Assembly (NCBI RefSeq): GCF_058153355.1
Contig: NZ_CM177019.1
Length of the DNA stretch: 64,000 bases
Reading direction: 5' to 3' (one strand)
The translations under genes and the position numbers were made by a program. Under the pieces are notes generated by a model. It searched no databases and was not told where the DNA came from. It saw only the letters and a program-made list of their open reading frames with translations. Shown here one piece after another: positions 37,528 to 55,772 of this stretch (positions are counted from its first letter, which is position 1; each line of letters opens with the position of its first letter).

Positions 37528-37752
37528 ATCAGACTCCTGAGTGGTTTTTGATTACAAACACCAACAATCTTAGTCAATAATTAATCTAATACCATCAAAT
37601 GGTTAATCATGATTTTTGTTTTGTGATTCTGATTAAGAAAAAGAAAATACCAGACGATAAGACAAAATATCAAGCGTTGTGAAGAAATGTTATTTGCTCT
37701 TTTGCGTCTATAGTCATGATGTCAAATGAACGCGTTTCGACAGGAAATCATC

Positions 37753-39078
37753 ATGAATAAATATCAGGCAGTTATTATTGGTTTTGGCAAGGCTGGAAAA
37801 ACATTAGCCGTCACGCTGGCAAAAGCAGGTTGGCGTGTGGCTCTCATCGAACAATCAAATGCAATGTATGGCGGGACCTGTATTAATATCGGCTGTATCC
37901 CAACCAAAACATTGGTTCATGACGCACAGCAGCACACAGATTTTGTCCGTGCCATACAGCGTAAAAATGAAGTGGTTAATTTTTTACGTAATAAGAATTT
38001 TCATAATCTTGCGGATATGCCCAATATCGACGTGATCGACGGCCAGGCGGAGTTTATCAATAATCATTGCCTGCGTATTCATCGGCCTGAGGGAAATCTG
38101 GATATTCATGGCGAGAAAATTTTTATTAATACCGGTGCGCAAACTGTGGTCCCGCCAATTCCTGGAATTACCACCACACCAGGTGTATATGACAGCACTG
38201 GATTACTTAATCTAAAAGAATTACCAGGGCATTTAGGTATTTTGGGCGGCGGATATATTGGCGTTGAGTTCGCCTCTATGTTCGCTAATTTTGGCAGCAA
38301 AGTAACCATTTTAGAGGCAGCTTCGCTGTTTTTGCCTCGGGAAGATCGGGATATTGCTGATAATATCGCGACGATTTTACGCGATCAGGGCGTCGATATT
38401 ATCCTCAATACCCATGTGGAGCGAATCAGTCACCATGAAAATCAAGTGCAAGTGCATAGCGAGCACGCCCAACTGGCGGTGGATGCACTGTTAATAGCTT
38501 CCGGTCGTCAACCGGCTACCGCTTCGTTACATCCAGAAAATGCAGGTATCGCAGTAAACGAGCGCGGGGCAATTGTCGTTGACAAGCAATTACATACCAC
38601 CGCAGACAATATTTGGGCGATGGGAGATGTTACCGGCGGGCTGCAATTTACTTACATTTCACTGGATGATTACCGCATTGTGCGTGATGAGTTGCTGGGA
38701 GAAGGCAGACGTAGTACTGATGATCGGAAAAATGTGCCTTATTCCGTATTCATGACACCGCCACTGTCCAGGGTTGGTATGACAGAAGAACAAGCCAGAG
38801 AGAGTGGTGCAGATATTCAGGTGGTGACATTGCCTGTAGCTGCAATTCCGCGTGCCAGAGTGATGAATGATACTCGTGGGGTATTAAAAGCGATTGTTGA
38901 TAATAAAACCCAACGTATATTAGGGGCATCACTGCTGTGTGTTGACTCCCACGAGATGATTAATATAGTGAAAATGGTGATGGATGCCGGGCTGCCTTAT
39001 AGCATATTACGCGATCAGATATTTACTCATCCGTCGATGAGCGAATCACTCAATGATCTATTTTCATTAGTCAAATAA
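37753..39078 (+). CDS. rclA: Pyridine nucleotide-disulfide oxidoreductase RclA (YkgC)
   Basis: Start at MNKYQAV gives 441 aa; FAD-binding GFGKAGK and redox-active CINIGC motif. Confidence 0.85.
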   Translation: MNKYQAVIIGFGKAGKTLAVTLAKAGWRVALIEQSNAMYGGTCINIGCIPTKTLVHDAQQHTDFVRAIQRKNEVVNFLRNKNFHNLADMPNIDVIDGQAEFINNHCLRIHRPEGNLDIHGEKIFINTGAQTVVPPIPGITTTPGVYDSTGLLNLKELPGHLGILGGGYIGVEFASMFANFGSKVTILEAASLFLPREDRDIADNIATILRDQGVDIILNTHVERISHHENQVQVHSEHAQLAVDALLIASGRQPATASLHPENAGIAVNERGAIVVDKQLHTTADNIWAMGDVTGGLQFTYISLDDYRIVRDELLGEGRRSTDDRKNVPYSVFMTPPLSRVGMTEEQARESGADIQVVTLPVAAIPRARVMNDTRGVLKAIVDNKTQRILGASLLCVDSHEMINIVKMVMDAGLPYSILRDQIFTHPSMSESLNDLFSLVK

Positions 39079-39186
39079 ACTCAAAATCAGACGCCAGGAC
39101 AAATATTCTGGCGTCTCAGAGAAAAGAATCTTATTAATTCCTTGTTATTATATAACTTCTTAATCACTTCATTGATGGTATTTTAT

Positions 39187-42222: not shown

Positions 42223-42255
42223 AATAATGGCGTTGAAGATGTCAACGCCATTATT
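42223..42255. terminator. Bidirectional terminator hairpin between ykgA and eaeH
   Basis: 14-bp perfect stem aataatggcgttga / tcaacgccattatt with a 5-nt loop, T-rich on both sides; sits between convergent genes. Confidence 0.55.
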
Positions 42256-53885: not shown

Positions 53886-53987
53886 ATGAAAGAGAATAAA
53901 GTACAGCAAATCAGTCATAAACTGATTAATATCGTTGTTTTTGTCGCAATTGTAGAATACGCCTATTTATTTCTCCATTTCTATTAA
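53886..53987 (+). CDS. ykgR: Small membrane protein YkgR (33 aa)
   Basis: Not in the ORF track (below 60 aa). ATG at 53886 preceded by gaggaag; encodes MKENKVQQISHKLINIVVFVAIVEYAYLFLHFY with one hydrophobic helix; position next to ykgM matches K-12. Confidence 0.65.
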   Translation: MKENKVQQISHKLINIVVFVAIVEYAYLFLHFY

Positions 53988-54321
53988 TAACGGCAATAAA
54001 CTGTTCACTTCAGTGATATTTAAAATATGCATCCTCTCCCTTTTTTTTAAGTAATTATTATATCCGTGGGAGAGGAATACACGCTGTCAGGTAATCAATC
54101 AAACTGCGATAAATCATCGGCCAGTAAAGTGGAGATAGCCTCCATTCTCGAAAAATTCATACTCTCAGCGAAACCATCATCAATCACTCATCCAGGCGTT
54201 TATGGGAGCGTCGCCAATGGCTGCTAACAATGCCAGACTTCCCCGTTGCCGAAATTCCACATACCACAAATGGTCACAGGGATTGGGTGTTGAAATGATC
54301 CGGATGAGCATGTATCTTTAC

Positions 54322-54341
54322 GGTTATGTTATAACATAACA
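54322..54341. promoter_or_regulatory. Zur box upstream of ykgM-ykgO
   Basis: Palindrome GGTTATGTTATAACATAACA about 10-30 bp upstream of the ykgM start; matches the Zur operator consensus core TGTTATA.TATAACA. Confidence 0.7.
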
Positions 54342-54351
54342 GGTAAAAATG

Positions 54352-54615
54352 ATGAAACCCAATATCCATCCTGAGTATCGTACTGTGGTGTTCCATGACA
54401 CCAGTGTTGATGAGTACTTTAAAATCGGCTCGACTATCAAAACAGACCGTGAGATTGAGCTGGATGGCGTAACGTATCCGTACGTGACAATTGATGTCTC
54501 TTCGAAATCGCACCCGTTCTATACAGGGAAGCTGAGAACAGTGGCATCAGAAGGAAATGTTGCACGGTTCACCCAACGTTTTGGTCGTTTTGTTAGCACG
54601 AAAAAGGGGGCGTGA
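54352..54615 (+). CDS. ykgM: Zinc-independent ribosomal protein L31 paralog (type B)
   Basis: 87 aa from [13 protein letters not shown]31 family without the CxxC zinc ribbon. Confidence 0.85.
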
Positions 54616-54755
54616 TGAAAGTCCTTAACTCTCTGCGTACCGCAAAAGAACGCCATCCAGACTGTCAGATTGTGAAGCGAAAAGGACGGCTGTATGTGAT
54701 TTGTAAATCTAATCCACGTTTTAAGGCCGTTCAGGGGCGTAAGAAAAAGCGTTGA
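54615..54755 (+). CDS. ykgO: Ribosomal protein L36 paralog (zinc-independent)
   Basis: Not in the ORF track. ATG at 54615 overlaps the ykgM stop; encodes [46 protein letters not shown] (46 aa), L36 family. Confidence 0.8.
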
Positions 54756-54789
54756 TTCATAATTCGCCGGATTAACGATATTTGTCTGA

Positions 54790-55017
54790 TTAATAATCAG
54801 ACCGGATTAATGTTGGTGTATTGATTACACCAACATTAATTTTCCTGGAAATATATTCTTTAAGTTCATTTAAAGCCAACTGCCTGACGTTTCTCTCCGA
54901 ATATTCCATTATATTAATGTTGATTTGTTGACCAACTTCGCCCCTGTATGCTGGTATCAACTCTCTTTTAGACTGAACAAGCCACTCCGCCCCCTCCCTT
55001 TGCGGAGCAGCCTGCAT
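54790..55017 (-). CDS. ykgL: Hypothetical 75-aa protein (YkgL-like); questionable gene
   Basis: 75-aa ORF at the position I recall for K-12 ykgL, but its C-terminal 12 codons are encoded by the perfect palindrome listed above. Confidence 0.35.
   Translation of the reverse strand: MQAAPQREGAEWLVQSKRELIPAYRGEVGQQININIMEYSERNVRQLALNELKEYISRKINVGVINTPTLIRSDY
54806..54843 (+). terminator. Perfect hairpin downstream of ykgM-ykgO
   Basis: 15-bp perfect stem attaatgttggtgta / tacaccaacattaat with a 5-nt loop followed by TTT; a second small palindrome tctgattaataatcaga lies just upstream at 54785-54801. Confidence 0.5.
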
Positions 55018-55772
55018 TTACACTCAAACTGTTAAGATGATAAATGTGGTAAATCTGTTGGTACTAACATAAAAACGTTTACGCCACAGGAACAGCCTGA
55101 TCCACCGGTAACCCCATCGCCGACGTTCGAGTGCCAGTTAGAGTAACGCGCACAGATGACTGCACGCAGTGCCCTGTCAAAGAGGCCATCGTTCCTGTGA
55201 CAGCTGGCAGCCTTCGTTTAACTTCACTTAATTTGGCTCTTGGGGGGCTTACCGAACAGATGACGTAGTCACACCTATTCAATTTTTCACCACTTATTGG
55301 AGTAAACACCCATAACCATTTTGTGCGGCATGTTAATCCATTAAAACACCTTATTGATTGTCAAATATTCTTTAATGATGACCAACAATAGTTTTATGCT
55401 CTATTTATTATCATTAAAACTTGTTTTTTTACTAGTCGAGCACAAAACGCATTAAGACTATTCCTAACACCTCAGGGCAAAGTTCCTGGCTAATATAAAA
55501 TGCAAGTAAGAATTGAACGTTATATTGCCAATAACCTTATGAAACTGAATGTCTTTTTCTTCTTATCAAAAAAGCAATATTTTCATTTTTAGTAAATATT
55601 GACTTAACCATGGAATTCCTTTTCTGTTCACATATTGACACTCATCAGGAAAAAAACATAAATTTAAGCCCAATCGAAAATAATTAAAACTTAATCTCGT
55701 TTAACCTATATTGATATGTGCTACGTATCTTATTTACTTCCGATTTACTAACAACACTGAATGTACCTGTAA

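Follow-up and report, generated by a model that had tools for sequence, protein, structure and literature searches.

The window analysed here, a stretch of 64,000 nucleotides from contig NZ_CM177019.1, carries the E. coli zinc-starvation operon ykgM-ykgO, which is already well known, followed by a palindromic hairpin and the convergent open reading frame ykgL (Table 1). Annotated E. coli genomes share 95-99.8% identity with the locus, although the allele in the window is rare, with at least 99% identity in just 3-5 of 5,426 genomes. The first-pass annotation, made from the letters alone, had named the two operon genes as zinc-free L31 and L36 ribosomal-protein paralogs, and both products score above the NCBIfam type B cut-offs (YkgM, 122.9 bits for NF002462, cut-off 86; YkgO, 91 bits for NF002021, cut-off 70). 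The 87-aa YkgM translation is cysteine-free, i.e. a C- type L31, the ykgO ATG overlaps the ykgM stop codon, and the variants found in ykgO across E. coli alleles are synonymous in six cases out of six.

The Zur-box palindrome reported upstream of these genes is likewise present, though its earlier boundaries of 54322-54341 were one base too wide on each side. It sits between a promoter-like site, TTGAAA-17-TATCTT, which lies directly 5' of it, and the ykgM start at 54352, just past the -10-like hexamer. An exact copy of the Zur core TGTTATGTTATAACA occupies 54327-54341 (expected number in the window, 0.05); a TGTTAT..ATAACA-type box precedes ykgM in 60 of 80 related loci, with the exact core of the window in about 50. 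A near match to the Zur box also occurs elsewhere in the window, at 39143. Published work shows that ykgMO is repressed by Zur in a zinc-dependent manner (PMC9825181) and that ykgM rises approximately 850-fold with calprotectin in E. coli Nissle (PMC12279244). In the mechanism we propose, zinc scarcity would take Zur off the palindromic box overlapping the promoter, and ykgMO would be induced several hundred-fold.

Table 1. Positions of features at the ykgM-ykgO/ykgL locus, numbered from the first letter of the window
Feature	Position	Strand	Description
Promoter-like site, ykgM	54290-54318	+	TTGAAA-17-TATCTT, 9/12 consensus matches; putative promoter
Zur box GTTATGTTATAACATAAC	54323-54340		Perfect 18-bp palindrome
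ykgM	54352-54615	+	Type B (zinc-free) ribosomal protein L31; ORF, PGAP annotation of near-identical genomes
ykgO	54615-54755	+	Type B ribosomal protein L36; ORF, annotation of near-identical genomes
Second hairpin GTCTGATTA A TAATCAGAC	54784-54802		Perfect 9-bp arms; folds on both strands
ykgL ORF	54790-55017	-	75 codons + stop; Escherichia-restricted, doubtful coding status
ykgL-sense RNA 3' end	54804	-	Equivalent of K-12 Term-seq end, MG1655 312325 (+), mapped via alignment to the window
Main hairpin	54806-54840		15-bp perfect stem, 5-nt loop; proposed bidirectional-type terminator / ykgMO 3'-end hairpin
U-rich tract AUUAAUUUU	54835-54843	+	ykgMO sense; read from sequence, follows core stem
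Third ATTAATGTTG copy	54913-54922	+	Equals start of hairpin left arm
Conserved block 5' of ykgL start	55018-55070	-	Candidate promoter region for ykgL-sense RNA; near-invariant in allele alignment

The hairpin downstream of ykgO

The 15-bp perfect-stem hairpin was found as first described: its two 15-nt arms, 54806-54820 and 54826-54840, show 100% complementarity. The stem consists of a 9-bp core, GTTGGTGTA/TACACCAAC, extended by self-complementary outer arms ATTAAT, with G-C at 5 of the 15 pairs in the full stem and 4 of the 9 in the core. As RNA it folds with -23 kcal/mol (z = -6.3), and perfect inverted repeats of at least 12 nt were absent from all 30 Markov simulations of the window, results which together argue that the hairpin is not a chance feature. 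It had been placed immediately downstream of the operon, but 51 nt separate it from the ykgO stop, and a second hairpin intervenes; this second hairpin includes the ykgL stop codon, takes an altered form in the outgroup locus L019 and is not kept in E. albertii.

The tail that follows the core stem is ATTAATTT on the + strand (5/8 T) and ATTAATCC on the - strand (3/8 T). A simple consensus terminator scan did not call the main hairpin, whose full 15-bp stem is followed by only TTT, and a search of Rfam returned no family, a chance mir-15 match falling far below threshold. The window holds three copies of ATTAATGTTG, against 0.29 expected. The same layout recurs at 42223-42255, where AATAATGGCGTTGA..TCAACGCCATTATT separates convergent ORFs. 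We also considered a repeated or mobile palindromic element of the REP or MITE kind and rejected it because the locus is single-copy, with a median of one and a maximum of two copies per E. coli genome.

Coding status of ykgL

As the first-pass annotation had noticed, the convergent 75-aa ykgL ORF reads straight through the hairpin: it runs ..KINVGVINTPTLIRSDY* across both arms, and the main hairpin falls within its last 17 codons. The accompanying argument, that a palindrome inside coding sequence is suspicious in itself, does not survive comparison with Klebsiella, Kluyvera, Enterobacter and others, in which a conserved strong stem-loop 25-75 nt past ykgO lies in the last codons of a convergent and real GNAT gene.

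No YkgL homolog was found beyond Escherichia in protein sets of 5.8 billion and 1.8 billion sequences, and no Pfam or NCBIfam model matched the protein. A cross-species query with the YkgL peptide returned nothing, presumably because the back-translated patterns miss AGR arginine codons and the species representative genome probably carries the divergent allele, and the cross-species locus search was redone with YkgM as the query. The L019 YkgM had no exact protein match on record; at this outgroup locus the ykgL start codon is absent and there is a 40-nt insertion. Within E. coli the ATG is kept in 20 of 20 loci, and the ORF that follows it has 75, 63/64, 35 or 11 codons, departing from 75 in 12 of the 20. 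Indels of 1 nt yield either the 35-codon form, which PGAP labels "frameshifted", or a 63-codon form with a different tail. Across complete E. coli genomes we estimate that approximately 56% carry the intact ORF, 6% the 63-codon form and 38% a frameshifted one, the indel-linked haplotype being present in approximately 44% of 5,048 genomes; since megablast cross-hits alleles around the C-run indel, exact-match identity bands alone were counted. The AlphaFold model of YkgL is a long helix of low confidence (pLDDT 57, pTM 0.29), too weak for a fold search. A proteome supplement (PMC8144880) lacks ykgL, and likewise ykgM and ykgO, and a literature search on "b0295" gave unrelated matches only.

Pairwise diversity in ykgL (0.053) equals the flanking intergenic level (0.036-0.069) and is 3-4 times that of ykgM (0.016) and ykgO (0.014), both of which are clearly constrained under the same codon tests. 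Two alleles from the same species diverge at 16% of YkgL residues, compared with none in YkgM or YkgO. The codon-level check that the first-pass annotation had proposed gave a weak synonymous excess: dN/dS is 0.36 between two intact haplotypes (Fisher p=0.04), and allele polymorphism comprises 13 synonymous changes (8.9 expected), 21 non-synonymous and 2 nonsense (p=0.08). Segregating sites fall at codon positions 1, 2 and 3 in the numbers 9, 10 and 16, and the window and K-12 differ at four places in the hairpin-encoded tail, each of them third-position and synonymous in the ykgL frame. A similar ratio, 0.41, however, comes from the antisense frame with which ykgL has its third positions in common. 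On these comparisons ykgL looks weakly constrained or unconstrained.

These observations bear directly on the alternative that ykgL encodes a genuine small protein, at least for lineages with the 75-codon form (such as phylogroups A/B1 and the window), with the hairpin inside its 3' end. The intact ORF in more than half of complete genomes, the ATG kept throughout E. coli, the synonymous excess, the silent differences in the tail, the predicted helix and the precedent of the GNAT gene, which has its own conserved hairpin in the last ~25 codons beside ykgO, would all fit such a gene, and the excess among intact alleles would be compatible with a young functional YkgL peptide. We nevertheless regard a genuine gene as unlikely: the ORF is frameshifted or given a different tail in ~44% of genomes and nonsense variants exist, its residues diverge within one species, the searches gave no homolog outside Escherichia and no family model, the outgroup lacks the start codon, the structural model is poor, and the antisense frame gives a similar ratio. 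The curated K-12 3' end, moreover, precedes the stop codon, and the corresponding transcript does not cover the whole ORF. Because the ORF is restricted, fast-evolving and cut in ~44% of genomes, and because the K-12 RNA ends before its stop, the ykgL-sense RNA is most probably a non-coding or antisense RNA present at low level, or at the very best a young, dispensable proto-gene; ykgL itself is most likely a lineage-restricted ORF or a non-coding antisense transcript, and we infer that a functional YkgL protein is absent. The earlier doubt about ykgL is thus upheld by its confinement to Escherichia, its frameshifts and 63-aa variant, its intergenic-like diversity and a 3' end that precedes its stop, but the stronger suggestion that it is an annotation artefact is unproven, given the intact majority and the dN/dS.

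In Nissle under zinc chelation, "ykgL" rises 2^9.27 (~600-fold) alongside ykgM (2^9.73) and ykgO (2^9.51), and ecpR/ecpA are missing from the list of significant genes (PMC12279244). The ykgL count of ~16,700 approximates ykgO read density multiplied by the ~54-nt overlap, in a source that gives no strandedness for its reads. Most simply, the induced "ykgL" reads are the 3' end of the ykgMO transcript, which explains the appearance of "ykgL" as a top gene induced by zinc starvation or calprotectin in RNA-seq. Nissle is a phylogroup B2 strain and presumably carries the frameshifted ykgL.

RNA 3' ends and conservation of the hairpin

Term-seq, proposed earlier as a check on the terminator, does place an RNA 3' end at the hairpin, but in the ykgL sense: MG1655 312325(+) (PMC7815308, supplementary file 1) corresponds to the second C past the stem, 2 nt after the hairpin, and to nt 213 of the 228-nt ykgL ORF, 14 nt short of its end. 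This end has a Rho score of 0.91 and is marked as not Rho-dependent (PMC7815308, supplementary file 3), and its signal of 749-865 reads is close to the smallest among the + strand values compared (PMC7815308). A second 3' end at 312466, antisense to ykgO/ykgM, is Rho-dependent (PMC7815308), which implies some read-through of the hairpin on the ykgL-sense strand. The end at the hairpin could also stem from exonuclease trimming. It is the sole experimentally mapped 3' end there, and since ykgMO was repressed in the media used for Term-seq, we infer from the sequence rather than observe that the ykgMO transcript ends at the main hairpin, with its 3' end expected near 54842-54845.

These ends raise the alternative that the hairpin serves mainly the opposite strand, ending or stabilising a ~230-nt ykgL-sense cis-antisense RNA of the excludon type, with ykgMO termination secondary. 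The Rho-independent end on the ykgL strand lies at the base of the stem, a further antisense end lies beyond it, the block 5' of the ykgL start is conserved, and ykgL-ykgO is listed as a convergent excludon (PMC12288877); a consensus promoter scan of 55018-55070 called no promoter. We consider a mainly antisense role improbable, given a Term-seq signal that is low among the + strand values compared, the better U-tract on the ykgMO strand and the conservation of the hairpin. The hairpin is kept in every E. coli allele examined, two haplotypes covering 5,048 of ~5,060 E. coli genomes with the locus (2,833 and 2,215 out of the 5,426 complete genomes; the 46-nt match is exact in ~97% of records). 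It is also kept in E. albertii, where the same structure lies 3' of ykgO with U-A changed to C-G, G-C changed to A-U and one U.G, and where neither ykgL homology nor an ecp-like sequence or ORF turned up in the ~2.3 kb 3' of ykgO, and nothing past the hairpin could be aligned. Taking the two species together, one pair occurs as U-A, U.G and C-G and another as G-C and A-U.

Pairing in these alignments favours the ykgMO sense. Paired cells in the stem alignment amount to 96.2% on the + strand and 93.3% on the - strand; a common E. coli variant has an internal pair that is U.G on the + strand and C.A on the - strand, with folding energies of -24 (+) vs -18.8 (-) kcal/mol, and the E. albertii hairpin folds with -20.3 (+) vs -15.7 (-) kcal/mol. 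The outermost stem pair favours the - strand in two lineages. Support from covariation is modest because independent lineages are very few, 41-61 of 500 shuffles reaching the observed values. Since the hairpin persists in E. albertii without ykgL and with compensatory changes, the selected feature, as far as these alignments can tell, is the hairpin, with G.U wobbles that fit the ykgMO-sense RNA, and its first-pass description as the 3' element of the operon is borne out to that extent.

Two further proposals attract less credence. One is a speculative scenario, to which we give little weight, of ykgL as a polymorphic proto-gene: the ancestral ORF, to judge from the spacing in the outgroup, would have stopped at a TAA within the loop of the terminator (63 codons), a 1-nt insertion in one E. 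coli lineage would have extended it across the entire hairpin to 75, and the ykgL-sense RNA, ending at the shared hairpin, could brake ykgMO as an antisense. A DNA-level role for the palindrome in place of an RNA structure, whether as a site bound by a dimeric ecp-region regulator or as a recombination site, might be suspected from its perfection as DNA, the excess of ATTAATGTTG and an H-NS-bound promoter island listed between ecpR and ykgL (PMC3661553), but it is highly improbable and was rejected as the main reading, because paired positions change together and G.U intermediates are tolerated, which suits RNA pairing better than a fixed protein recognition sequence, while an RNA 3' end lies at the stem base and E. 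albertii keeps the hairpin with no ecp-like sequence in the ~2.3 kb past ykgO.

Discussion

Our preferred reading, which we hold to be probable as a whole, is that of a Zur-repressed ykgMO operon ending at a bidirectional-type hairpin, with an overlapping ykgL that has no likely coding role. The palindrome 51 nt past ykgO would act as an RNA stem-loop that ends and protects the ykgMO transcript. Its ATTAAT hexamer would both extend the stem and double as a U-rich tract, reading AUUAAUUUU in the ykgMO direction and AUUAAUCC, a weaker tract, in the other, and by serving as stem and U-tract in both directions the element would behave like the bidirectional terminators that lie between convergent units. 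The hairpin may also shield the co-directional ecpR region, ~950 nt downstream, from the strongly induced ykgM promoter. On the other strand, ykgL would be an ORF that chances to run into the hairpin. To judge from its layout, the ykgMO terminator is of an ordinary two-way (bidirectional-type) kind.

The practical value of these findings lies chiefly in annotation, as "protein YkgL" is carried through thousands of E. coli genomes yet behaves like fast-evolving non-coding DNA. The ykgM promoter is employed in calprotectin biosensors, for which knowing a natural ykgM transcript stop that would shield the ecp regulatory region may be mildly useful. The findings on ykgMO and ykgL leave the current understanding of Zur regulation and termination unchanged.

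Comparison with known systems

The operon in the window is essentially no different from the Zur-regulated ykgM-ykgO (rpmE2-rpmJ2) of E. coli and other Enterobacterales, with the same genes, gene order and Zur box. The GNAT acetyltransferase gene that adjoins ykgO in other genera encodes a real conserved protein of 232-267 aa (PF13302), unlike ykgL, and its hairpin is G/C-rich, has no U-tract and is unrelated in sequence to the ykgMO hairpin. ykgL itself resembles the orphan, possibly de novo, ORFs of E. coli in being genus-bound, domainless, polymorphic, often frameshifted and of low-confidence structure, and differs from them in the weak synonymous excess of its intact alleles. ykgL-ykgO is among the convergent overlaps that ExcludonFinder detects in 50% or more of the MG1655 RNA-seq samples (PMC12288877). 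Compared with convergent excludons, the overlap may come to only ~40 nt should the hairpin end both RNAs. To our knowledge, no mutual-exclusion phenotype or RNase III dependence has been described for the ykgL-ykgO pair. Ju and colleagues reportedly identified bidirectional intrinsic terminators in E. coli in 2019, using full-length RNA profiling. The ykgMO hairpin departs from these in its A/U-rich stem (5/15 G-C), in its short and asymmetric U-tract, and in its position, which is inside an annotated ORF and not between two stop codons. It resembles them in its single hairpin separating convergent units, in A/T-rich outer arms, which would serve as stem and U-tract both ways, in having a 3' end mapped on one strand, and in the presence of its twin at 42223-42255.

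The ykgM-ykgO-ykgL locus

The region 54200-55100 is the already known E. coli ykgM-ykgO-ykgL locus, matched in 5,062 of 5,426 complete E. coli genomes, most of them near 95% identity to the window allele and only about five at 99%. In matching genomes the PGAP gene order is ykgR, ykgM, ykgO, ykgL (convergent) and, in the same orientation as ykgMO, ecpR-ecpA-ecpB-ecpC; the NCBIfam models for type B L31 and L36 recognise YkgM and YkgO with scores over their curated cut-offs. The window's allele is rare (at least 99% identity in only 3-5 of the 5,426 genomes), and the N-terminal half of its YkgL matches a 64-aa variant from 'Escherichia sp. HH154_1D', a match that hints at recombination.

Features of the locus in window coordinates (+, ykgMO sense; -, ykgL sense)
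Feature	Position	Strand	Remark
YkgR, 33-aa small membrane protein MKENKVQQISHKLINIVVFVAIVEYAYLFLHFY	53886-53987		annotated in matching genomes
ECS017 region	about 54250-54340	-	upstream of ykgM, K-12 ykgMp (PMC3175480)
ykgM	54352-54615	+	ORF call
ykgO	54615-54755	+	ORF call
Second small hairpin	54784-54802		between ykgO and main hairpin; ykgL stop codon inside
ykgL	54790-55017	-	ORF call

The Zur-box palindrome that the first-pass annotation placed ahead of ykgM-ykgO is present as a perfect 18-bp palindrome (54323-54340), directly 3' of a promoter-like TTGAAA-17-TATCTT, and its core TGTTATGTTATAACA has 0.05 chance matches expected in the window; of 80 related loci in other Enterobacterales, 60 have a TGTTAT..ATAACA-type box 5' of ykgM. 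Elsewhere, a Zur-box-like TGTTATTATATAACT with one mismatch (39143-39157), probably a chance match, is flanked by a small secreted-protein-like ORF and, at 37726-39078, a pyridine-nucleotide-disulfide-oxidoreductase-like ORF of 450 aa, a pair that looks like rclA-rclB. Repression of ykgMO by Zur is established (PMC9825181). Deep sequencing yielded a candidate cis-antisense sRNA of 92 nt, ECS017, which lies opposite the ykgM promoter and gives a northern band of ~275 nt (PMC3175480), and ykgR rises 3.5-fold (log2 1.8) in E. coli Nissle with calprotectin (PMC12279244).

A predicted terminator downstream of ykgO

The 15-bp perfect-stem hairpin reported after the operon is confirmed: its arms (54806-54820 and 54826-54840) are 100% complementary around a 5-nt loop, and the RNA folds at -23 kcal/mol (z = -6.3). 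The real window holds six perfect inverted repeats of at least 12 nt, compared with none in simulated sequences, and all six look like terminators. The five further perfect hairpins, of 12-15 bp, are at 42223-42255, 20125, 28102, 29055 and 32248; the first (AATAATGGCGTTGA..TCAACGCCATTATT, with AATAAT...ATTATT arms) lies between convergent long ORFs and shares its A/T-armed architecture with the ykgO hairpin. The 10-mer ATTAATGTTG occurs three times in the window (54806-54815, 54831-54840 and 54913-54922; 0.29 expected), and its third copy, within ykgL and 72 nt from the main hairpin, might form an alternative structure by pairing with one of the hairpin arms.

We best read the ykgO hairpin as a predicted 3' terminator and stabiliser of ykgMO, of the bidirectional type. 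Its outer six pairs form the self-complementary hexamer ATTAAT, and its 9-bp core stem (GTTGGTGTA/TACACCAAC, four G-C pairs) is followed on the ykgMO strand by AUUAAUUUU, with U at five of the first eight positions, and on the opposite strand by AUUAAUCC, with U at three of eight. The core would act as the terminator stem and the ATTAAT outer arms would supply the tail in either direction, which, judging from sequence, is probably the build of a bidirectional terminator. The ykgO hairpin went uncalled in a simple terminator scan, which counts the full stem and so meets only TTT after it.

Two haplotypes make up almost all E. coli genomes with the locus, the K-12 type (2,833 genomes; perfect 14-bp stem, 7-nt loop) and a second (2,215 genomes) whose 15-bp stem carries A-to-G in its right arm, and ~97% of records are exact across 46 nt at the hairpin. 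The A-to-G variant gives a U.G wobble in ykgMO-sense RNA, whereas in opposite-sense RNA it gives a C.A mismatch. In E. albertii, ykgM-ykgO is followed by the same hairpin and by nothing else alignable downstream: ykgL is absent, the ~2.3 kb examined yielded no ecp-like sequence or ORF, and the stem has a U-A (or U.G) pair changed to C-G, a G-C pair changed to A-U and one more U.G. Across seven distinct sequences, paired cells amount to 96.2% on the + strand versus 93.3% on the - strand, a comparison drawn from few independent lineages and with shuffle controls that were not decisive; variant alleles also fold better on the + strand, at -24 versus -18.8 and -20.3 versus -15.7 kcal/mol on the - strand. 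Sequence comparison offers supportive evidence, though not proof, that the hairpin is a conserved, selected element of the locus.

Published transcript data

The published MG1655 Term-seq map, whose coordinates run opposite to the window's, includes among its curated 3' ends one at 312325 on the + strand, which is ykgL sense (Adams et al. 2021; PMC7815308, supplementary file 1; table register verified against the sgrS row). Supported by 865 reads in one condition and 749 in another, this end is flagged as not Rho-dependent and is given with the sequence ...AAAATTAATGTTGGTGTTATAAACACACCAACATTAATCC|GATCTGATTA, which therefore places it 2 nt past the stem, at nt 213 of the 228-nt ORF and 14 nt short of the last stop-codon base. 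A second, Rho-dependent 3' end maps beyond it, antisense to ykgO/ykgM (PMC7815308). Term-seq, to which the first-pass annotation had pointed, accordingly supports an end at the hairpin in the ykgL sense, and the same MG1655 list gives none in the ykgMO sense, as is to be expected of an operon repressed in the media used.

Calprotectin raises ykgM (log2 9.73), ykgO (9.51) and 'ykgL' (9.27) in Nissle, and ecpR and ecpA, ~950 nt downstream on the ykgMO strand, fall outside the significant genes (PMC12279244). As a rough estimate, library strandedness being unstated, the 'ykgL' count of ~16,700 is close to the ykgO density of ~365/nt multiplied by ~54 nt, the ykgL overlap expected from a hairpin-terminated ykgMO transcript. 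ExcludonFinder places ykgL-ykgO among convergent transcript overlaps (PMC12288877), and H-NS binds the ecpR/ykgL intergenic region, a promoter island (PMC3661553). The segment 55018-55070, directly upstream of the ykgL start, varies less between alleles than the ykgL ORF and may be a promoter for ykgL-sense transcription; the promoter scan called no consensus site in it.

Coding status of ykgL

We best read ykgL as a lineage-restricted ORF or a non-coding antisense transcript over the hairpin. YkgL matches no Pfam or NCBIfam model, its homologs in protein sets of 5.8 billion and 1.8 billion are Escherichia variants only, many with changed ends, and AlphaFold models it with low confidence (pLDDT 57). 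In a set of 20 E. coli loci, ORF length is 75 codons in eight, 63/64 in four (with a different tail, ..PGKLMLV), 35 in seven and 11 in one; PGAP labels it frameshifted in NRG 857C, D8, RIVM_C039629 and M172-1 and calls a 63-aa hypothetical protein in O157:H7. From an evenly spaced sample of hits and allele-specific counts, we estimate ~56% intact, 6% 63-codon and 38% frameshifted copies in the population. Pairwise diversity is 0.053 in ykgL, 0.016 in ykgM, 0.014 in ykgO and 0.036-0.069 in flanking non-coding DNA. In a divergent Escherichia lineage (L019) the start codon is gone and 40 nt are inserted; there and in the 63-codon type the hairpin lies 24 nt from a conserved GTTCAT, versus 25 nt in the window and K-12, a spacing that suggests that the frame through the whole hairpin arose via a 1-nt insertion.

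Some constraint on ykgL may nevertheless exist, as dN/dS is 0.36 between two intact haplotypes (8.5 synonymous and 12.5 non-synonymous differences, p=0.04), the variants across 19 alleles are 13 synonymous, where 8.9 are expected (p=0.08; in the same test ykgM p=0.005, ykgO p=0.0006), 21 non-synonymous and 2 nonsense, and all four window-to-K-12 differences in the ykgL tail are synonymous. Codon-level selection, named in the first-pass annotation as evidence for a real gene, appears as a weak synonymous excess in both the haplotype comparison and the polymorphism test, and the evidence for and against ykgL therefore points to relaxed or very weak constraint rather than a conserved protein. A 33-nt block, CTGCCTGACGTTTCTCTCCGAATATTCCATTAT (54881-54913), shows no variation in 19 of 19 distinct E. 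coli alleles and persists in part in L019; ykgL outside it is highly variable. Our reading of ykgL bears on annotation and on the interpretation of 'ykgL' induction in zinc-limitation transcriptomes.

Hairpins in convergent genes of other genera

The ykgL frame does read straight through the hairpin, as K-I-N-V-G-V-I-N-T-P-T-L-I across both arms, and a palindrome inside coding sequence had been held against the gene. Such a palindrome is no ground for suspicion by itself, and the doubt over ykgL survives because of the comparative and Term-seq evidence. The gene downstream of ykgO in Klebsiella, Kluyvera, Enterobacter, Kosakonia and other genera is convergent and encodes a GNAT acetyltransferase (PF13302); its end overlaps the ykgO stop codon (L021-L076, loci of these genera; e.g. 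L076:2901-3599, minus strand). The hairpin of this GNAT gene, G/C-rich, of 13-16 bp (GCTTGCCGTCGGCGG..CCGCCGACGGCAAGC) and without a U-tract, is conserved within coding sequence, in the last ~25 codons (..WLAADNFTADGKQ..).
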